From the NCBI GenBank assembly GCA_963748625.1, contig CAVVJT010000007.1, positions 128,001 through 192,000 of the forward strand: 64,000 bases of DNA, in the 5' to 3' direction. Shown here piece by piece: positions 23,122 through 40,056 of the stretch. Origin of the DNA: an uncultured Chloroflexia bacterium (lineage in GTDB: Bacteria; Chloroflexota; Limnocylindria; Limnocylindrales; CSP1-4). The notes under the pieces are model-generated. The model was given only the letters and a program-made list of their open reading frames with translations, was not told where the DNA came from and did not search any database. Both the position numbers and the translations under genes were made by a program. The stretch's first letter is position 1, and the number at the start of each line of letters is the position of its first letter.

Positions 23122-23814
23122 CTAGGCGACCTTGCGCACGCGCACCGCACCCGGTCGTGTGGCCACGGCCACGAGGATGCGGTAGGCCAGCAGGAACGTC
23201 ACGGTGACGGCCGCGCCCAGGTAGAGCGCCTGGGCCCATGGCTCCGAGGCATCGGAGCCGGCGGCCAGCCCGTGCGCGGTGGCGCCCACGAACGCGAGGA
23301 AGGTCGTGTAGTGGAGCGCACGCCAGGCCCGCTGGCCGAGATGCCGGCGCACGTAGAACGACCCGATCACCAGCGCCGCGAGGTAGAAGGCGACTTGCCC
23401 GGCGGCCACCGCGAGTGGTGCGTGGGGCGCCAGCCCGGGCACCAGGACCTGCGCGATCGTGAAGGGCACCGTGTGGTCGAGCACGAGGATGACGCCGTGG
23501 ACCGCCGCCAGGGCGACCCCGATCGCCGCGAGGTCCTGGTGGAGGCTGAACGTGATCGGGCGGTGGGCGATGACATCGAGGATCCTCGTGGACAGCAGCA
23601 GCCCGTACACGACCGAGCCCGTCAGCGCGAGATAGGCCCCGAACCCGAGCACGCGCTCAACGAGCCACACCAGCGCCTGGCGGTTGGCGTCCCAGGCGGC
23701 GGCCAGGTCCGCGATCGCCGCGGGCGCCGTCGCGCCGATCACCATGCCGACAGCGATCGCGGCCAGTCCCCACCGCGCCACCGATGTGCGCGGATTCAGG
23801 CCGCGAAAGATCAT
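23122..23814 (-). CDS. Ferric reductase-like / MsrQ-like heme b membrane protein
   Basis: Multiple TM helices; His pairs LHQDL...AVH and WRALHY...TAH. Confidence 0.8.
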   Translation of the reverse strand: MIFRGLNPRTSVARWGLAAIAVGMVIGATAPAAIADLAAAWDANRQALVWLVERVLGFGAYLALTGSVVYGLLLSTRILDVIAHRPITFSLHQDLAAIGVALAAVHGVILVLDHTVPFTIAQVLVPGLAPHAPLAVAAGQVAFYLAALVIGSFYVRRHLGQRAWRALHYTTFLAFVGATAHGLAAGSDASEPWAQALYLGAAVTVTFLLAYRILVAVATRPGAVRVRKVA

Positions 23815-24731
23815 CCCAGCCACTGCAGCAACCCCGGGGTGGCGCGGATCTCACCGTCCGCTGTGACGAGGACGGCGCCGTGGACGCCGGCCCGATCGAG
23901 AAGCTCGAAGGCGCGCTCCGAGCCCGCGATGACAGCGGCCTTGGCCCACACCTCGGCCGTGCGCGCGGAGTCGGCGAGCACGGTGGCCTGGACCACGTCC
24001 GTCGCGGCCGGGCGTGCGGTCGCAGGGTCGATCAGGTGATGGGCGACGTCCTCGCCGTGCCGCCAGCGGTGGACCGTGGTGCCTGACGTGGCCAGGCCGA
24101 GGACGCGGGCCGCTCCCTCACCTCCGCTCAGGTGGATCACCAGCAGGTCGTTGTCGGGCGATCGGGGATCCGCCACGCCAACCCCGAAGGCGTCGCCCGG
24201 CGCGACGCGGACGGCGATGTCGCCGTCCCCGTCCACCAGCACTGAGCGTCCCGGCGTCATGGCCAGGGCCCTGTCCGCGAGCCAGCCCTTGGCGACGCCA
24301 TCGAGGTCGAGCCGGACGCCCGGCGTCCTGTGGACCTCAGCCCCGCGTGCGCTGCGGGTCATCGACCACCGCCGCGCTGCCGCGACGCGTGGTGCGGGAT
24401 CGGTGCCCTCCTCCGCCGCCAGCCGGGCGTCGAGCAACGCGACATCCACCAGGCCGTCCGTGGCCGACTCGGCCGCGCGGGCCCAGTCGAGCACCGCTGA
24501 CAGCGTGGGTCGCACGGTGACCGCCTCGCCGGGATCGGCGTTGAGCCGGGCCAGCTCGGAGTCCGGATCGAACCGCGTGAGGATCTGCGCCCACGCCCCG
24601 ATCCTGTCGAGCGTCCGCTCCGCTGCCGCCTCGAGACGGCCGGCCGGCGCGTCGTCGGTGAGGTGGACGGACACCCGGCCCCCCAGCATCGTCCGGGTGG
24701 CGCCGGCGGTGCTCGCCATGGCCTGGGTCAC
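23811..24731 (-). CDS. apbE: FAD:protein FMN transferase (ApbE family)
   Basis: LTRFDPDSELARLN, LDLDGVAKGWLAD, DGDGDI, ATSG, HHLIDPAT; no signal peptide visible. Confidence 0.88.
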   Translation of the reverse strand: MTQAMASTAGATRTMLGGRVSVHLTDDAPAGRLEAAAERTLDRIGAWAQILTRFDPDSELARLNADPGEAVTVRPTLSAVLDWARAAESATDGLVDVALLDARLAAEEGTDPAPRVAAARRWSMTRSARGAEVHRTPGVRLDLDGVAKGWLADRALAMTPGRSVLVDGDGDIAVRVAPGDAFGVGVADPRSPDNDLLVIHLSGGEGAARVLGLATSGTTVHRWRHGEDVAHHLIDPATARPAATDVVQATVLADSARTAEVWAKAAVIAGSERAFELLDRAGVHGAVLVTADGEIRATPGLLQWLG

Positions 24732-25138
24732 GGCTTTCCGCCTGACTGGCGGGTGCGGGTGACCACCTTCGTCTTGACGATGGGCGTCGGCTGCGGCTGG
24801 GCCTGCGTCGCGGCGCCGGGGGGCGGTGTCTGGCCGGGCTCCAGCACGACATACCGGGTCACCTTGCGCACGGGAGCCGTCACGACGGGCAGCGCCTCGC
24901 CGGGCAGCGCCGCCGCGGTGGTCACGATGCCACCCGGGGCCGCGGCGGCCTGCGGGACGATCGACGGGGCCATCGCGGCGGTGAGCGCGGACACGGTCGC
25001 GATGCCGGCCATCCCCAGCATCAGGCGCATCGGGTTGGCGTTCGGGCGCGTGCGCGTCGTCACGGGGGTGGAGGGCCTGGCGGCGGTGGAAGGCCTGGCG
25101 GCGGAGGACCGGGCGGCGGTGTCGTGCGGGCGGCGCAT
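24728..25138 (-). CDS. Hypothetical membrane-anchored protein, Pro/Thr-rich, ending TRTRQSGGKP
   Basis: Translationally coupled to both neighbours; single hydrophobic segment. Confidence 0.65.
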   Translation of the reverse strand: MRRPHDTAARSSAARPSTAARPSTPVTTRTRPNANPMRLMLGMAGIATVSALTAAMAPSIVPQAAAAPGGIVTTAAALPGEALPVVTAPVRKVTRYVVLEPGQTPPPGAATQAQPQPTPIVKTKVVTRTRQSGGKP

Positions 25139-25440
25139 CAGTCGTCGTCCCCCTCGTGCTCACCCTCGTGCTCGTCGTCGTCGCCCCCGGCGGACGAACC
25201 GCCGACCACCGTGTTCACGATCACTTCCGGCGTCGCCTGCGGGCTGAGGTAGACGGTGTCGACCTGGACCGGGTCTGTGGCGGCCGGCGTATCCGTCGCA
25301 GCTGCTGACTCGAGCGGCAGGTCCACAGCCTGGGCGTCGGCAGCGGGCCCGGCAGGCCCGAAGCCGGCGACCGTGAGGCCCGCGGCCAGCACAAGCGCGG
25401 CGACGAGCGAGGCCGCGAGGAGCGCAATGCGGTTGATCAT
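25138..25440 (-). CDS. Small secreted protein with acidic His-containing tail (DDDEHEGEHEGDDD)
   Basis: Signal-like N-terminus MINRIALLAASLVAALVL; stop overlaps the next start. Confidence 0.65.
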   Translation of the reverse strand: MINRIALLAASLVAALVLAAGLTVAGFGPAGPAADAQAVDLPLESAAATDTPAATDPVQVDTVYLSPQATPEVIVNTVVGGSSAGGDDDEHEGEHEGDDD

Positions 25441-33151: not shown

Positions 33152-33540
33152 GCTCCTATAACGTCAAGGGGCAATCTGCGCGGGTTCCGCTCCAGCCAGC
33201 AGCGCCGCGAAGACGTGCCGGACGAGGTGCCGCTTGAGGCATCGCAGGGCCTCCCGGTACGACTTGCCCTCCTCGCGCTTGCGCGCCAGGTAGGCCCGCG
33301 CCCGCGGGTCGGACCTCGCCTGCCAGACCGCGATCGTCCAGAACGCCCGGTTGACCCGCCGGTTGCCGCGCCGGTTGTGCCGGACCCGGCTGGTCCGGCC
33401 CGAGCTGGCCGGCAGCGGGGCGATGCCCGCGAACATCGCGAAGGCGTCGTCGTCGCGGAACCGGGCCACGTCGCCCGCCTCGCCCCGGATGACCGCGGCG
33501 CTGATGATCCCGAGCCCCGGGATCGCGAGCAGCCTGAACG
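33152..33540 (-). mobile_element. IS110-family element remnant (C-terminal transposase domain plus right end)
   Basis: LLAIPGLGIISAAVIRGEAGDVARF...AGIAPLPASSG...RRGNRRVNRA...REALRCLKRHL; stop overlaps TTGAC followed by ATAGGAGC; N-terminal DEDD domain absent. Confidence 0.85.
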
Positions 33541-33573: not shown

Positions 33574-34407
33574 TCAGTCGACGAGGTCGATCGACTCCCC
33601 CGGGCTGAGGATCTGCACCGGCACGTCGGGTGCGAGCCGTGCTGCGGCATCCGCGAAGAGACGGCCCGGCCGCTCGAACGGCTTGGGGACCACGGACCGC
33701 AGCAGGGCCGGGTAGAACGTCCCCCAGTGGATGGGCACCGCCAGCTTCGGCCGGAGCAGCGCCGCCGCCTGGGCCGCGCGCTCCGGGTCCATGTGGCCAG
33801 GGCCGATGTTGGGACCCCAGCCCCAGACCGGGAGGAGGGCCACATCGAGCGTCCCCGCCATGTCGGCCATCGCCGGGAAGATGTCGGTGTCACCCGGGAA
33901 GTAGATGGTCTTCGAGCCCTCGATGACGCAGCCGATGGGCGGCCCTTCCGGCCCGAACGGCTCCCGGCGCCGTGAGTGCAGCGCCTCGGTGACGGTGAAG
34001 TGCACGCGGTCGATCGTGAGCCGGTCGCCGGGCTCCACCTCCTCCACCGGGCCCAGGTCGAACTTGCGGACCATGTCGCCGAACCCCTTGGGCACGATGA
34101 CCGTGGGTCGCCCGGGGATCTGGCGCAGGGACGGGATGTCGAGGTGGTCGTGGTGCCCGTGGCTGATGAACACGGCGTCGAGGTCGGCGAACAGCTCGGG
34201 GAGCACGGCCTGCACCTGGCGCCGAACCGGTCCCAGGCCGTCCCGCAGCACGGGGTCGGTCAGGATGCGCAGGTCGTCCACCTCGATCAGGAGGGTCGCA
34301 TGCCCGAGGAAGGTGAGACGGGCGCGCTCCGGCCCGGACGCCCTGGCGGGCGCGGCGGCGCGGACGGATCGCCACGTGGCATCGACGGCGGCGGGGCGGG
34401 GCGGCAT
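33574..34407 (-). CDS. MBL-fold metallo-hydrolase
   Basis: FLGHAT, LTDP, SHGHHDHLD, GDT, PIHWGT. Confidence 0.9.
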   Translation of the reverse strand: MPPRPAAVDATWRSVRAAAPARASGPERARLTFLGHATLLIEVDDLRILTDPVLRDGLGPVRRQVQAVLPELFADLDAVFISHGHHDHLDIPSLRQIPGRPTVIVPKGFGDMVRKFDLGPVEEVEPGDRLTIDRVHFTVTEALHSRRREPFGPEGPPIGCVIEGSKTIYFPGDTDIFPAMADMAGTLDVALLPVWGWGPNIGPGHMDPERAAQAAALLRPKLAVPIHWGTFYPALLRSVVPKPFERPGRLFADAAARLAPDVPVQILSPGESIDLVD

Positions 34408-34591
34408 GACGTCATGGTGCCGTAAAAGGTGGACGGCCGCCCGAGCAGACCACAATCCGCCGCCGCAACGTGAAACCTTGGACCGCAAACATGTATCAAA
34501 GGGGTGGGCCACACATAGCACTAACGGCCTCTTGTGTCCTGCGTCCTGACCACTGACGCTGTCGCCCAACGTCTGCCCGAGGTGTCCCCCG

Positions 34592-34867
34592 TTGCTCTCC
34601 CAGATGCTCGGACGCGATCGCGCCAAACGCGAGGCCCTCGTGTCCGGGCGCGTGGTGGCCGAGGCCTCCCGGTGCGTGGAGTGCGGGATCTGCGCCTACA
34701 ACTGCCCGCTGGGCATCGACGTGCGCAGCCACGCCCGCCAGGGCATCCCGGTGGCGGACAACCGCTGCCTCACGTGCGGTGAGTGCGTCGCCCGGTGTCC
34801 ACGCGGCACGCTTCGCTTCGAGACATCGGCGGTGTTCACGGGAGACCTCGAGGTCGTGGGCCGATGA
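34592..34867 (+). CDS. 2x[4Fe-4S] ferredoxin
   Basis: CVECGICAYNCP and CLTCGECVARCP. Confidence 0.9.
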   Translation: MLSQMLGRDRAKREALVSGRVVAEASRCVECGICAYNCPLGIDVRSHARQGIPVADNRCLTCGECVARCPRGTLRFETSAVFTGDLEVVGR

Positions 34868-36180
34868 GCGCCAGGTACGTGGTCGTGGGCAACGGCGCGG
34901 CCGGGGCATCAGCGGCATGGGCCCTCCGGGCCCGCGATCCCGAGGCCGACATCACCATCGTGGGCGACGAGAAGGTCCCGTTCTACTCGCGGCCCGGGCT
35001 CGCCTACATGCTGCTGGGCGTGATCCCGGACAAGCAGGTGTTCTCGCGTCCCGACAAGCGCTACCAGGAGGCCCGCATCAACCGGGTGACTGCCAGGGTG
35101 GCCGCGATCGAGCCCGCGCCCCACAGGCTGCTCACCGAGGACGGCAGGGTGCTCCGCTACGACCGTCTGCTGCTCGCACTGGGCGCCGGCGCCACCTTGC
35201 CCTCCATCCCCGGCATCGATCTCGAGGGCGTGGTCACGCTCGATGACTACGAGGGCACCAAGGAGATCATCAAGCTCGCCTCCAAGGCGAAGCGGGCCGT
35301 CGTCGTGGGTGGTGGCATCACCGCCCTCGAGCTCGCGGAGGGCCTGGTGGCCCGCGGTGTCGAGACGCACTACCTCATGCGCGGAGAGCGCTACTGGGCG
35401 AACGTGCTCGACCCGTCCGAGTCCGCCCTGGTCGAGGAGCACCTCGTCGCGGGCGGCATGCGGCTCCACAAGGGCGTGGAGCTCGCCGAGGTCATCGGGC
35501 GCAAGGGCAAGGTCAGCGGCGTCCTCACCAAGGACGGGCGCGAGATCGCCTGCGACATGGTCGGCGTGGCGATCGGCGTGCAGCCGCGCACGGGCCTCGC
35601 CTCCGCGATCGGCCTGCGGACCGGCCGCGGGATCTTCGTGTCGGAGTCGTTCGAGACCGACCTTCCGGACATCTACGCCGCGGGCGACTGTGCCGAGGTC
35701 TTCGACCCCGCGACCGGGAGGCGCTCCGTGGACGCGCTCTGGTCGATCGCCAACGAGCAGGGCCGCGTGGCCGCCGACAACATGGCGGGCCACCGCACCA
35801 CCTACCTGCGCCCTGCCCCGTTCAACGTGACCAAGATCGGGGGCATCACCACCACCGTCATCGGCGCGGTGGGCACCGGCGCCAAGGACGACGACCTCGT
35901 GTCGCTCTCGCGCGGCGACACCTTCGTCTGGCGCGAGCAGCTCGCCGACTTCACCACGGTCACCACGCACGGCACCAACCGCCTGCGCCTTGTCGTGGGC
36001 CATGACCGCATCGCCGGTGCGGTGGTCATGGGCGACCAGGCCCTCTCGCGCCGCCTCCAGCACATCGTGCGCGCACCAATCGACATCTCCCACGTCCGCG
36101 AGCACCTGCTCGACGGCTCCAACGACCTGCGCTCGGTCCTTGCGTCCCTGGCCGAGGGGAGCGCCATGGGTGTCACGTAA
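34864..36180 (+). CDS. NAD(P)H/FAD-dependent oxidoreductase (NirB N-terminal / rubredoxin reductase-like)
   Basis: GNGAAG (FAD), YSRPGL, GGGITALE (NAD), IYAAGDCAE; overlaps the ferredoxin stop. Confidence 0.9.
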   Translation: MSARYVVVGNGAAGASAAWALRARDPEADITIVGDEKVPFYSRPGLAYMLLGVIPDKQVFSRPDKRYQEARINRVTARVAAIEPAPHRLLTEDGRVLRYDRLLLALGAGATLPSIPGIDLEGVVTLDDYEGTKEIIKLASKAKRAVVVGGGITALELAEGLVARGVETHYLMRGERYWANVLDPSESALVEEHLVAGGMRLHKGVELAEVIGRKGKVSGVLTKDGREIACDMVGVAIGVQPRTGLASAIGLRTGRGIFVSESFETDLPDIYAAGDCAEVFDPATGRRSVDALWSIANEQGRVAADNMAGHRTTYLRPAPFNVTKIGGITTTVIGAVGTGAKDDDLVSLSRGDTFVWREQLADFTTVTTHGTNRLRLVVGHDRIAGAVVMGDQALSRRLQHIVRAPIDISHVREHLLDGSNDLRSVLASLAEGSAMGVT

Positions 36181-36844
36181 TCAGGAACTCGTCGCCGCGC
36201 TGATCACGGTCATCGTGGTCTCGGCGCTCTATATCGGCCTCTCGGCGTACTGGGGCGTGCCGCCCTCCTCTGGCCCCCTCGGCCACGGCATTGGCGTCAT
36301 CGGGTTCGGCCTGATGCTCCTGACCGAGGTCGGCTACTCGAGCCGCAAGCGCTCCACCGGCCGGCCCCGGGGCACGATGGCCTCGTGGCTGGGCTTCCAC
36401 ATCTACACGGGGATCGTGGGGCCGTATCTCGTGCTGCTGCACACCGCGTGGCACTTCAACGGCCTGGCCGGGCTGCTCACGCTGATGATGGCCATGGTCG
36501 TGATCTCCGGGTTCATCGGGCGCTACATCTACACCGCGGTGCCGCGGACTGCTGACGGCGCCATCCTCGAGGCGGCGGAGATCAGCCGGCTGCTCGACGA
36601 GGCCCGCGCCGAGGCCGAGGCCGCCCACGCCGCAGGAGCGACGCGCGACCAGGCCGCCCTCAAGCGCGAGAAGGCCGCCACGAAGCGCCTGCGCACGCTC
36701 GAGCGCCAGATGGCCTCGCTGCGCTGGGCACGGCGGGCGCTCGCGACCTGGCACACCCTCCACATCCCGCTCGGCATGGCCATGTTCGTGACCGCGTTCG
36801 CGCACATCGCCGGCGCCCTCTACTTCGCAACGCTCTCCTGGTGA
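36170..36844 (+). CDS. Putative diheme cytochrome b-like membrane protein
   Basis: About 5 TM helices; two His pairs 14 residues apart (FHIYTGIVGPYLVLLH and LHIPLGMAMFVTAFAH). Confidence 0.7.
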   Translation: MSRNQELVAALITVIVVSALYIGLSAYWGVPPSSGPLGHGIGVIGFGLMLLTEVGYSSRKRSTGRPRGTMASWLGFHIYTGIVGPYLVLLHTAWHFNGLAGLLTLMMAMVVISGFIGRYIYTAVPRTADGAILEAAEISRLLDEARAEAEAAHAAGATRDQAALKREKAATKRLRTLERQMASLRWARRALATWHTLHIPLGMAMFVTAFAHIAGALYFATLSW

Positions 36845-36848
36845 TGCC

Positions 36849-39065
36849 ATGACGATGCAGCGACGACCGTTCGGATGCCTCACCGGGATCGCCCTGGTGT
36901 TCGGCACGCTGACCGTGATCCTGCTCGTGGCGGCGGCCCTCGCGACCGCCAACGGCATCTTCGCGCCCGGTCCCCTCAACGCGGAGAAGGCGGAGACCGC
37001 CCTGCACGGGATCAGCTCCCACGCGGACCTCGCCGGCCGGTGCGACGCGTGCCACGCCCAGGCCTGGTCGGCTGAGCGGATGGCTGACAAGTGCCTCGCC
37101 TGCCATGAGAGCGTCGGTGACGAGCTTGCCGCCGGCACGGGCCTCCACGGCCGGTTCGCAACGTCAGGGCAGTGCCGCGGCTGCCACACGGAGCACGGCG
37201 GAACCACGGCCTCGCTCACGGTCGCGAACCCGGCCACCTTCCCGCACGCCAAGACCGGCTTCTGGCTGGATGCGCATCCCGTCGCCCAGCGGCTCGACGC
37301 GTTCACGTGCGCGGACTGCCACCAGGACTCGGTGAGCAAGTTCACGGCCTCCTCCTGCCAGACCTGCCACACCGAGGAGGACCCCGCCTACATGGCGGAG
37401 CACGTGGATGCGTTCGGCACCGGGTGTCGCAACTGCCACGATGGCATCGACACCTACGGCGCGGACTTCGCCCACGCGAGCTGGAAGCTCGAGGGCAAGC
37501 ACGCGGACACGTCGTGCGCGATGTGCCACGCGGGCGACACGACCATCCTCGAGCTCCAGGACACCTCGACCGCCTGCATCTCCTGCCATGCCAAGGAGGA
37601 CATCCACGAGCGGCGCCTGGGCTCGGACTGCGCCAGCTGCCACACGGCTGCCACGTGGGAGGAAGCGCCCGACGACTTCGACCATGACCAGACGACGTTC
37701 GCGCTCAAGGGCGGTCACACCGAGGTCGAGTGCCTCGGGTGCCACGTGGACCGGGCGTGGACCGGCATCGGGACGACCTGCGAGTCCTGCCACGCCGCGG
37801 ACGACCCGCACAACGGGCAGTTCGACCAGCCGTGCGCCTCGTGCCACACCGAGTCGGACTGGAAGGAGACGACGTTCGACCACGCGACGACGCGCTTTGC
37901 GCTGGTTGACGCGCATGCGAAGCCGGAGTGCTCCGCCTGCCATGCGGACGGGAAGTTCACGGGCACCCCGATGACCTGCTATGCCTGCCACAAGGCGGAT
38001 GACGAGCACAAGGGCAACGTCGGCAAGCAGTGCGAGGAGTGCCACGTCGCCACGACCTGGGCGGACACCACCTTCACCCACGCCCAGTCCGACTTCCACC
38101 TCACCGGCGCCCACACGGATGCGCTCTGCGTGAAGTGTCACGCGACGCTGACCGAGTACCGCGGCACACCCACCACGTGCTTCGCCTGCCACAAGGACGA
38201 CGATGAGCACAAGGGCGAGTTCGGGACGGACTGTGCCTCCTGCCACAACACCCGCGACTGGGACGACGTGACGTTCGACCATGCGAAGACCGACTTCCCG
38301 CTCACGGGTGCCCATCGCTCGGCGACGTGCTCCAAGTGCCACACGGACTCGACGTTCAAGAACACACCAACCTCGTGCGTGTCCTGCCACCGCGCCGACG
38401 ACGCCCACAACGGGTCGCTGGGCACGAACTGCGCGAAGTGCCACTCCACCCGGGCTTGGGAGCCGGCCACGTTCGACCACGCCACCACCGGTTTCAAGCT
38501 GACCGGCGCCCACGTGAGCACCACCTGCCGGAAGTGCCACACGAGCACGACCTACGCGAACGTCCCGAGCACCTGCTACGGCTGCCACAAGCAGGACGAC
38601 GAGCACAACGGCGGTTTCGGGACCAAGTGCAACGCCTGCCACACGACCCGCAGCTGGTCCGGGGCGACGGTTGATCACAGCAAGACGGACTTCCCGCTCA
38701 CGGGCGCCCACAAGTCCGTGAGCTGCGCGAAGTGCCACAAGAACAACGTGTACTCGGGCACGCCCACGGCCTGCAATGCCTGCCACAGCAAGCCGAGCAC
38801 GCACCAGCCGGATTCGTTCTCCGCCTGCAGGAGCTGCCACACAACCGGGGCGTGGAAGCCCGCCGACTTCAACCAGGCGCACTCGTTCCCGATGGGACAC
38901 CGCAACGCCGACGGCGTCTGCAGCAAATGCCACACGGGTTCGTGGGCGGTCTACACGTGCTCGCGGTGCCACTCGGACACGAAGATGAACGAGAAGCACA
39001 GGGAGGTCTCAGGCTTCTCGCTGAACACGTGTGCGAAGTGCCACCCCAAGGGCGAGGGAGACTGA
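36849..39065 (+). CDS. Membrane-anchored multiheme cytochrome c with 30 CxxCH motifs
   Basis: 30 CxxCH counted in 738 aa; repeating about 66-aa triheme unit FDH..T.F.L.G.H...CxxCH...CxxCH..DD.H....CxxCH...W; N-terminal TM/signal. Confidence 0.95.
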   Translation: MTMQRRPFGCLTGIALVFGTLTVILLVAAALATANGIFAPGPLNAEKAETALHGISSHADLAGRCDACHAQAWSAERMADKCLACHESVGDELAAGTGLHGRFATSGQCRGCHTEHGGTTASLTVANPATFPHAKTGFWLDAHPVAQRLDAFTCADCHQDSVSKFTASSCQTCHTEEDPAYMAEHVDAFGTGCRNCHDGIDTYGADFAHASWKLEGKHADTSCAMCHAGDTTILELQDTSTACISCHAKEDIHERRLGSDCASCHTAATWEEAPDDFDHDQTTFALKGGHTEVECLGCHVDRAWTGIGTTCESCHAADDPHNGQFDQPCASCHTESDWKETTFDHATTRFALVDAHAKPECSACHADGKFTGTPMTCYACHKADDEHKGNVGKQCEECHVATTWADTTFTHAQSDFHLTGAHTDALCVKCHATLTEYRGTPTTCFACHKDDDEHKGEFGTDCASCHNTRDWDDVTFDHAKTDFPLTGAHRSATCSKCHTDSTFKNTPTSCVSCHRADDAHNGSLGTNCAKCHSTRAWEPATFDHATTGFKLTGAHVSTTCRKCHTSTTYANVPSTCYGCHKQDDEHNGGFGTKCNACHTTRSWSGATVDHSKTDFPLTGAHKSVSCAKCHKNNVYSGTPTACNACHSKPSTHQPDSFSACRSCHTTGAWKPADFNQAHSFPMGHRNADGVCSKCHTGSWAVYTCSRCHSDTKMNEKHREVSGFSLNTCAKCHPKGEGD

Positions 39066-39070
39066 CCTCG

Positions 39071-39135
39071 GGCGGTGGCGCGCCCGCACTCTCGGCGGCG
39101 CAGCGCCCGCACTCGCGGCGGTGGCGCGCCCGCAC
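39071..39135. repeat. Short imperfect direct repeats downstream of the cytochrome gene
   Basis: ggcggtggcgcgcccgcac-like unit, three times. Confidence 0.5.
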
Positions 39136-39322
39136 GACTTGATCAGGCTCGCGCCGGGTGGGAGCCATCCGGCGCGACGTGCGCATACCACACCTGGGGT
39201 GCGCCAACGGACCCGACGCGGCCTTCGGACCGCCATACGCCCACCAGGCAGGAGCAAACGCATCTCCCGGCCCGGTGACATCCGCTACGTCCCACCTGGC
39301 GGGAGATTGGCAACGCGGGGGG

Positions 39323-39377
39323 TTGACATTCAGCATTCATCATGCATCCTAACGTTCAGCAATTGCTGAATGGTTAG
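39323..39377 (+). promoter_or_regulatory. Promoter with palindromic operator upstream of the HTH-MFS operon
   Basis: TTGACA at 39323; perfect palindrome ttcagcaattgctgaa 39355-39370, flanked by ctaac/gttag. Confidence 0.7.
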
Positions 39378-39390
39378 TGGAGCACAAACG

Positions 39391-40056
39391 TTGACCCCCG
39401 ACGGAACACCCGCCCAGGAGCGCGATCTCGACCCCGGCTTCGAGCCGGAGGAGGTCCGGTACATCCGCGACGTCGAGACGCTCAAGGCGCTCTCCGACCC
39501 CACCCGGGTGCGGATCCTGGAGGTCATGGTCCAGCGCCGGTCCCCGGCCTGGTCGGTCAAGGAGATCGCGGCAGCCCTCGGCGTGCCGCCGACGCGCCTC
39601 TACCACCACGTGGACCTGCTGTTGGCTCAGGATCTCCTGCGGCCGGTGGAGCGCCGCGTGGTGTCCGGGATCATCGAGACCCGGTACGTCCCGGCCGCCC
39701 GGTCCTTCCAGCTCGACCGCTCGCTGTTCGCGGGCGATGGAGCCGAAGGCCTGGCGGTCCTCCACGAGACGATGGTCGCGGTGTTCGACACCGCGCGCTC
39801 GGAGGTCGAGCGAGCGATCCGAGCCGGTGCCGCCGATCCGGGTGACACCGGCGACGAGAGCCGGCGCCTCCTCGTCTCGCGCGGCCTCACCCACCTCACG
39901 CCCGCCCGTGCCGCTGAGCTTCGTGCCCGCCTGCAAGCCCTCGCCGATGAGTTCGGGGGCGAGCAGGACCCGGTGGATGCGCCCGGCGCCCTGACCTACG
40001 GACTGGTCGTGGCGGTCTATCCCCTCCTCGATCCCCAGGAGTCCCCCGATGACTGA
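39391..40056 (+). CDS. ArsR-like winged-helix transcriptional regulator
   Basis: ETLKALSDPTRVRIL, SVKEIAAALG...RLYHHVDLL, GIIETRY; TTG start after GGAG. Confidence 0.85.
   Translation: MTPDGTPAQERDLDPGFEPEEVRYIRDVETLKALSDPTRVRILEVMVQRRSPAWSVKEIAAALGVPPTRLYHHVDLLLAQDLLRPVERRVVSGIIETRYVPAARSFQLDRSLFAGDGAEGLAVLHETMVAVFDTARSEVERAIRAGAADPGDTGDESRRLLVSRGLTHLTPARAAELRARLQALADEFGGEQDPVDAPGALTYGLVVAVYPLLDPQESPDD

Follow-up and report, generated by a model that had tools for sequence, protein, structure and literature searches.

A 64,000-nucleotide stretch of DNA from an uncultured bacterium of the phylum Chloroflexota (hereafter the window) carries four adjacent genes, at positions 34604-39065 and all on the + strand, that encode a ferredoxin, a flavoprotein, a membrane protein with five transmembrane (TM) helices and a multihaem cytochrome c. 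We see about an even chance that the four products make up one transmembrane electron-transfer module, similar to a split NADPH oxidase (NOX), in which electrons would pass from NAD(P)H to flavin adenine dinucleotide (FAD), then to iron–sulfur (FeS) clusters, haems b and finally haems c. An earlier inspection of the same sequence (the original prediction) had proposed such a chain. The proposal is now supported in part, by conserved synteny, conserved histidines, gene fusions and the presence of cytochrome maturation genes, and the chain fits every test that was run.

The window corresponds to C7:128001-192000 of a 4.6-Mb genome in 10 contigs (98.3% complete, 7.7% contamination) and has a G+C content of 72%. 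The four genes were found where the original prediction had placed them, co-oriented and with overlapping or 4-nucleotide junctions. The ferredoxin gene (34604-34867, +; 87 amino acids) starts with ATG, an alternative TTG start lying at 34592, and its stop codon overlaps by 4 nucleotides (ATGA) the ATG of the flavoprotein gene (34864-36180, +; 438 amino acids). The latter overlaps by 11 nucleotides the gene of the membrane protein (36170-36844, +; 224 amino acids, a candidate di-haem b cytochrome), which has a GTG start 8 nucleotides downstream of GGGGAG. After a spacer of 4 nucleotides follows the cytochrome c gene (36849-39065, +; 738 amino acids). No porin, NapC/CymA or NrfD component was detected by Pfam in the operon, or among the gene families recurring in its conserved neighbourhood in 80 loci, as had been claimed; the claim does not extend to the whole genome, which encodes a NapC/NirT-family cytochrome elsewhere.

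The gene set is conserved as a unit. The membrane gene is present in 56 of 401 sampled genomes of the phylum, with a patchy spread: one of 23 other genomes of its own family, 14 of 24 in f10, 5 of 25 in f14, all 28 in f24 and 4 of 11 in f28. All four genes occur in the order of the window in 10 of 20 wide loci, which come from four families. Gene order was also counted in the best 80 of 445 species-representative loci, 17 of which run off the locus ends, leaving 63 complete. The titles of these 80 loci name Limnocylindrales, Anaerolineales/-ae, Caldilineales, Ca. Aquidulcis and metagenome-assembled genomes (MAGs) labelled 'Chloroflexia/Chloroflexi/Chloroflexota'. Synteny held well: 53 of the 63 complete loci show the order ferredoxin, flavoprotein, membrane protein, cytochrome, and five more have the cytochrome(s) first, followed by the other three genes in the same order. 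In three, a cytochrome follows the membrane gene but the cytoplasmic genes are arranged or detected differently, and the last two are rearranged in other ways. In 58/63 loci, a cytochrome with at least five haems immediately follows the membrane gene or precedes the ferredoxin gene, and the ferredoxin and flavoprotein genes are co-oriented, adjacent and upstream in 62 of the 66 loci with room for them. The downstream cytochromes have 5-39 haems, some being shortened by locus ends; 18 and 21 haems are the most frequent values (15 loci each), and many counts are divisible by three. Beyond the four genes, none of the gene families occurs in more than 10 of the 80 loci, apart from 'families' that overlie the four genes in a different frame or on the other strand and were taken for shadow frames of G+C-rich DNA.

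The membrane protein contains the two pairs of histidines, 14 residues apart, that the original prediction had singled out, H77/H91 and H198/H212. They belong to the motifs W73-x3-H77-x13-H91 on TM3 and W194-x3-H198-x13-H212 on TM5, and a further motif, S113-G114-F-I-G117 (SGxxG), lies on TM4. All four histidines are conserved, being kept in 120 of 120 close relatives and, among representatives at 50% identity with a residue at the respective column, in 139/140, 143/144, 115/127 and 109/121. W73, S113, G114, G117 and W194 are likewise present in 120/120 close relatives and, counted with the four histidines, in 109-143 of 121-145 distant representatives. The other two histidines considered, H95 and H153, are not conserved. 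The family is large, with 2840 proteins at E ≤ 0.001 in a word-indexed search and 2336 representatives at 50% identity. Its named members, from Chloroflexi and Candidatus Limnocylindrales MAGs, are nearly all 'hypothetical', apart from one record as cytochrome b561 and one as V-ATPase subunit I.

An AlphaFold2 model of the membrane protein, based on a 90-row alignment, reached a predicted local distance difference test score (pLDDT) of 94.5 and superseded a poor single-sequence model (pLDDT 67). Its helices span residues 2-28, 36-61, 70-91, 98-122, 135-158 and 161-222, the last one ending in a hydrophobic stretch at about 193-222. By the positive-inside rule, the N-terminus and the YSxRKR loop would be cytoplasmic and the C-terminus outside, with TM3 and TM5 running from inside to outside and residues 127-190 forming a cytoplasmic helical hairpin. 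This predicted topology would therefore place H77/H198 near the inner face of the membrane and H91/H212 near the outer face. It agrees with the fusions seen in two family representatives, since FeS domains are fused N-terminally (P0246, 2Fe-2S followed by the membrane domain) and haem c domains C-terminally (P0227, the membrane domain followed by c7/c3 domains). The 224-residue chain ends after TM5 and carries no FNR-type FAD/NADPH dehydrogenase domain, the flavoprotein being separate.

The cytochrome contains exactly the 30 CxxCH motifs originally counted, with 61 cysteines and 62 histidines in total. The second-richest open frame in the 4.6-Mb genome has 7 such motifs, so that a count of 30 is far beyond chance. 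The chain is built of ten trihaem units, six of which form regular 66-residue repeats (residues 264-668). There are 32 histidines outside the motifs, about three per trihaem unit, and each 66-residue repeat adds an FDH, a GAH and a DDxH; with three extra histidines per unit, all haems can therefore be bis-His ligated. Pfam Cytochrome_C7 matches in eight stretches (125.5 bits, cut-off 24.8), while NCBIfam TIGR04257 (nanowire_3heme; 30.5 bits, cut-off 40) and the HmcA model (55 bits, cut-off 400) stay below threshold, and a phmmer search against PDB sequences gave no match at E ≤ 0.001. If the protein were as extended as a 12-haem Geobacter protein, which we take to be roughly 12 nm long, its 30 haems would span about 30 nm.

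The sole hydrophobic segment of the cytochrome is N-terminal (residues 11-32). It is preceded by R-P-L-G-C and followed by G-N-G-I-F-S-P-G (residues 1-37, window 36849-36960), and these flanking motifs recur in most rows of the 69 orthologues listed, which suggests a retained signal anchor. The description of the cytochrome as membrane-anchored is thus probably right, although the small residues before GNG would still allow cleavage by signal peptidase. The conserved Cys10 is not that of a lipoprotein, a reading we rejected, as it precedes rather than follows the hydrophobic segment; it may lie where the cytochrome meets the membrane subunit.

On the cytoplasmic side, the ferredoxin has the two CxxCxxCxxxCP motifs of the predicted 2x[4Fe-4S] protein, their eight cysteines (C24, C27, C30, C34, C55, C58, C61 and C65) and also P35 and P66 being invariant in 59 sequences. 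With Pfam Fer4_9, Fer4_7 and Fer4_10 above cut-off, it has the features of a bacterial-type 2x[4Fe-4S] ferredoxin. The prediction of a complex between the membrane protein and the ferredoxin, run without controls, gave scores of 0.09 and 0.17 against a mark of 0.32.

The flavoprotein appears to belong to the FAD/NAD(P)H oxidoreductase class assigned to it before. It matches Pfam Pyr_redox_2 (182 bits, E 2e-53), with all NCBIfam equivalogs, including NirB N-terminal, PadH and CoA-disulfide reductase, far under cut-off, and its two Rossmann motifs, GxGxxG (residue 9) and GGGxxA (residue 149), are unchanged in all 60 sequences compared. A YSRPG stretch (Y41, S42 and P44 in 60/60, R43 and G45 in 59/60) occupies what is presumably the position of the active-site cysteine in related disulfide reductases. 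One of the two cysteines of the flavoprotein is kept in 54/60 sequences and the other in 3/60. Because there is no conserved cysteine pair, a role as disulfide reductase was rejected and the protein is, by its sequence, of the electron-transferase type. Its closest solved relative, 8c0z_E (E 4e-45), is titled in the PDB as the ferredoxin:NADH-oxidoreductase-like subunit of an aldehyde oxidoreductase. This subunit is wired to a polyferredoxin within its complex and would provide a precedent, by analogy, for wiring a flavoprotein to FeS clusters. R173, preceded by L/M and located after the NAD(P) β2 strand, is present in 60/60 orthologues, where 8c0z_E has Glu, which hints at the use of NADPH.

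Relatives of the membrane protein retain the cytoplasmic genes even where the cytochrome is missing. In seven loci of distant families (L048-L054), the flavoprotein gene adjoins the membrane gene and no cytochrome is found (tblastn). Four of them (L048-L051) have the order flavoprotein (510-632 amino acids), ferredoxin-type open reading frame (90-140 amino acids) and membrane protein (320-334 amino acids), a gene set confirmed by Pfam in L048. A fifth (L053, G138:C1) encodes a single protein of 1085 amino acids comprising Pyr_redox_2, a Fer4 dicluster, two cNMP-binding domains and a further Fer4, beside a membrane homologue that matches Ferric_reduct (E 4e-5). Such persistence in cytochrome-less loci is what would be expected if the cytoplasmic pair is the partner of the membrane protein. 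At another locus (L055, G298:C59), the flavoprotein carries four FHA domains, the ferredoxin has cNMP-binding domains, and the membrane domain is fused to a 5-haem cytochrome (824 amino acids). The FHA and cNMP-binding domains suggest that, in these lineages, phosphorylation or cyclic nucleotides switch the exporter. A word-index search for longer fused forms found one protein at E ≤ 0.001 among 8000 candidates scored, and this one was without a Pfam domain.

The remainder of the genome supplies the maturation genes to which the original prediction had looked: it encodes a System II cytochrome c maturation apparatus (two ResB, two CcsA-type), so that attachment of haem c outside the cytoplasm is possible. 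A haem-copper oxidase is encoded as well, and the genome is aerobic-capable. A second multihaem cluster lies at C7:632000-652000 (L140), with open reading frames of 7, 6, 6, 3, 3, 2 and 2 CxxCH motifs, among them the NapC/NirT-family cytochrome mentioned above (L140:7301-8167, E 2e-13), and Paired_CXXCH/MtrC-like domains, next to ResB and CcsA genes. Near the end of the contig of the window, a gene encodes a 536-residue β-barrel of the ShlB/FhaC two-partner-secretion type (TpsB; POTRA_2, ShlB and Omp85; C7:1332442-1334053, L137:1372-2982, -), which is unexpected if the cell has a single membrane; the 7.7% contamination of the genome is to be kept in mind here.

In the module that we propose, the cytoplasmic flavoprotein would oxidize NAD(P)H, possibly NADPH, and pass single electrons to the ferredoxin, which would reduce the inner haem (H77/H198) of the five-TM di-haem b protein. 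The electron would then traverse the membrane to the outer haem (H91/H212) and enter the membrane-tethered chain of 30 bis-His c-type haems, reaching away from the membrane, towards a final acceptor outside the cell or in its wall, which could be Fe(III), humics, other cytochromes or O2. Quinones would take no part. We infer an outward direction because electrons exported at about -320 mV run downhill, with the membrane potential assisting them as in NOX, cytochrome b561 and MsrQ; import to NAD(P)+ is disfavoured since it would oppose both the redox gradient and the membrane potential.

Several points weigh against this scheme. No Pfam or NCBIfam family matches the membrane protein above the gathering score, its only Pfam match being DUF4405 (PF14358; 16.9 bits, cut-off 26.7). 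Scanned singly, family members gave sub-threshold matches to Ni_hydr_CYTB (PF01292; 35/90), DUF4405 (18/90) and Ferric_reduct (PF01794; 13/90), which presumably form one Pfam clan of di-haem membrane cytochromes. Ni_hydr_CYTB members are quinone-reactive. Structural comparisons were only suggestive: Foldseek found no match to the model in the PDB at E ≤ 0.001, and VIA-align gave CybB 5oc0 (Z 9.2, 133 residues), STEAP4 6hcy (Z 8.3, 151 residues), b561 4o6y (Z 8.1) and Dcytb 5zlg (Z 7.9), matches to di-haem cytochromes that do not rise above the noise among helical proteins, where coiled coils reach Z 9-10. Searching PDB sequences with a profile (alignment A2) gave chance-level coiled-coil matches alone (best E 0.3). 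DUF4405 binds haem b in a Firmicute protein (PMC11334425). As drawn, export conserves no energy, and the module would act as an electron sink, as a reductase of outside substrates or as a feeder of other surface cytochromes. Respiration would not depend on it, because the haem-copper oxidase and the NapC/NirT-linked cluster exist. In view of the TpsB-type gene, the cell may have an outer membrane, and the operon encodes no passage through one. Finally, the literature searched, from which subscription-only papers were absent, holds no experiment on any member of the family.

It is unlikely, in our estimate, that the conduit is instead linked to quinones, with the membrane protein acting, like CbcL or CymA, as a quinol:cytochrome c (or cytochrome c:quinone) oxidoreductase, and the flavoprotein–ferredoxin pair either feeding the quinone pool through it or being accessory or regulatory. 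He et al. (2017) likened inner membrane proteins with the same signature to the ferric reductase domain and proposed for them a quinone-active di-haem cytochrome b (PMC5566968), which favours this alternative over ours. Ni_hydr_CYTB is moreover the commonest of the sub-threshold Pfam matches, and 5 of the 15 rows in Supplementary Table 6 of the same paper lack the 'other redox protein' (PMC5566968). Against this alternative stand the upstream adjacency of the ferredoxin and flavoprotein genes in 62/66 loci, their fusion in a relative, and the seven cytochrome-less loci in which the flavoprotein stays with the membrane protein, with the ferredoxin between or fused wherever inspected. No quinone-site motif was identified, though none was searched for.

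A non-respiratory supply of electrons is decidedly improbable: the genes would then serve iron acquisition (as a ferric reductase), redox repair or detoxification at the surface, NOX-like superoxide production, or an electron-storing capacitor. The cytochrome-less core of distant families, a putative exporter with other acceptors, would suit such a function, as would the cNMP-binding and FHA domains on the cytoplasmic subunits of relatives, which recall signal-regulated NOX, and the aerobic capability of the genome; a language-model neighbour cluster automatically named 'Iron reductase' (score 0.89) is a lead only. However, a wire of 15-39 haems would be costly for reducing a soluble chelate, and the 80 loci show no conserved siderophore, Msr or Dsb gene in the vicinity.

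The least probable of the readings considered is inward uptake, in which the 30-haem wire would take electrons from Fe(II), reduced humics, a partner cell or H2 (by another enzyme) and deliver them to NAD(P)+ or ferredoxin. All-bis-His c7-type haems are usually low-potential and reversible, which would permit it. The signature clusters of He et al. occur in iron oxidizers (PMC5566968), and the gene of the PCC3 inner membrane protein, still a predicted component in a 2025 preprint, is upregulated in iron-oxidizing Sideroxydans cells, which implies inward flow for that other family and counts against an outward wire (10.1101/2025.02.27.639646). Yet the PCC3 and PCC4 proteins have no significant homology even to each other and are analogues at best (PMC5566968), no proton- or ion-coupling subunit is found in the cluster (Pfam; 80 loci), and uptake would have to work against the membrane potential and, on bioenergetic grounds, reduce NAD(P)+ with a donor well below -320 mV.

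The proposed outward module is assembled from parts of known kinds. It would share with NOX, ferric reductases and STEAP proteins, and with MsrQ of E. coli working with Fre, the path from NAD(P)H through flavin and two haems b, held by histidine pairs of two TM helices, to an outside acceptor. The Ferric_reduct match of a relative's membrane protein (E 4e-5) and the STEAP4 alignment of our model (Z 8.3 over 151 residues, within the noise noted above) accord with this. It differs from NOX and ferric reductases in having five TM helices instead of six, Pyr_redox_2 and a ferredoxin instead of a fused FNR-type domain, and a haem c wire as acceptor. The tandem trihaem c7-type units resemble those of the Geobacter poly-c7 'nanowire' cytochromes (GSU1996 type, TIGR04257), unlike which the cytochrome described here has an N-terminal anchor or signal, scores below the TIGR04257 cut-off and has feeders of its own, in the membrane and in the cytoplasm, encoded in the same operon. 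The Tmc and Hmc complexes of sulfate reducers also bring together, within a single operon, an outside multihaem cytochrome of the c3 family, a cytochrome b in the membrane and an FeS protein in the cytoplasm, but with a membrane subunit of another family, an HdrD-like cytoplasmic partner rather than an NAD(P)H flavoprotein, and inward flow. Entry from the inner membrane into multihaem wires is likewise known from CbcL, CbcBA and ImcH of Geobacter and CymA of Shewanella, and in CbcL a di-haem b domain is fused to a multihaem c domain, as in the fused relatives found here. These proteins, however, are quinol oxidases without a dedicated NAD(P)H dehydrogenase, and the operon of the window has no NapC/NirT domain. 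The Mtr and Pcc porin–cytochrome conduits differ in that our cluster lacks a porin gene.

The nearest precedent in print is the class of inner membrane proteins that He et al. (2017) described beside multihaem cytochromes, with five TM helices, SGxxG on TM4 and Wx3Hx13H on TM3 and TM5 (PMC5566968). The protein of the window matches this signature exactly, a multihaem cytochrome gene is adjacent and a porin is absent; the likeness established here is one of signature. Their Supplementary Table 6 tabulates porin-less clusters of a cytochrome, a five-TM protein and 'another redox protein' in Proteobacteria and Chlorobium, for which extracellular transfer was judged less likely (PMC5566968). The further redox protein, often present, has 412-805 amino acids, and its domain identity is not given in the text or tables (PMC5566968). 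Their clusters have 7-18 haems, in contrast to the 30 haems, the chloroflexotal host and the separate ferredoxin and flavoprotein genes described here. Large cytochromes with variable haem numbers have been reported in Anaerolineales by Arbour et al. (2020; PMC7399161), a 24-haem cytochrome by Hug et al. (2013), and large cytochromes likewise in a preprint on the Chloroflexi supergroup; the text examined of these three makes no mention of feeder genes. The view that no characterized system has this composition therefore stands for the literature searched, in which no paper describes or tests the four-gene set in Chloroflexota, but the type of cluster is already tabulated (PMC5566968). What is already in print, as a prediction, is the signature of the membrane protein and its association with multihaem cytochromes; the porin-less cassette of Chloroflexota, with a separate ferredoxin and NAD(P)H flavoprotein, is widely conserved and uncharacterized.

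A more specific proposal, which we regard as possible but doubtful, is that the cassette provides Chloroflexota with the inner-membrane step that has been missing from their extracellular electron transfer. It would be a split NOX, driven by NAD(P)H and independent of quinones, in which the conserved N-terminal helix of the cytochrome, with RPLGC inside and GNGIFSPG outside, completes the five-TM di-haem core and electrons are passed straight into the haem wire. The wire would be changed in trihaem steps by lineage (15 to 39 haems), matching the cell envelope. In other Chloroflexota, the wire-less core, equipped with cNMP and FHA sensor domains, would export electrons under the control of signals.

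The operon is flanked by genes for an MBL-fold hydrolase, an ArsR-type regulator and a major facilitator superfamily (MFS) transporter (Pfam). The hydrolase frame (33574-34626, -) is divergent and, in its listed form, extends over the start of the ferredoxin gene. Since its Pfam domain begins at residue 103, translation probably starts later, which would leave about 200 nucleotides of divergent intergenic DNA, in which a promoter scan found no sigma-70-like promoter. Across 34200-39500, the promoter and terminator scan gave no promoter-like site and one terminator-like site, on the minus strand within the cytochrome gene, a count not above that of shuffled sequences. Among the sequencing runs searched, no RNA run with the sequence was listed, and the best DNA run shared 0.16 of the words. 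The operon is preceded, at a distance of 1.1 kb, by a 101-residue fragment of an IS110/IS116/IS902-family transposase (33164-33469, -; PF02371, E 1e-13). This fragment, together with the patchy distribution noted above (one of 23 other genomes of the same family), hints that the cassette was horizontally acquired. At a distance of 10 kb, with no link to the operon shown, lies a gene for an ApbE flavin transferase (23811-25163, -; PF02424, E 5e-38), a marker of extracytosolic flavinylated electron-transfer proteins, followed by an open reading frame of 233 amino acids without annotation (23122-23823, -).

How electrons leave the cytoplasmic membrane is unsettled in bacteria without Mtr, Pcc or CymA. 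A self-contained module of four proteins is small enough for expression and reconstitution, and it makes two questions testable, namely whether NAD(P)H can feed a chain of haems on the outside in the absence of quinones, and how the number of haem repeats relates to the thickness of the envelope. If our reading is true, the cassette would also offer a compact means of connecting the metabolism of cells with electrodes.

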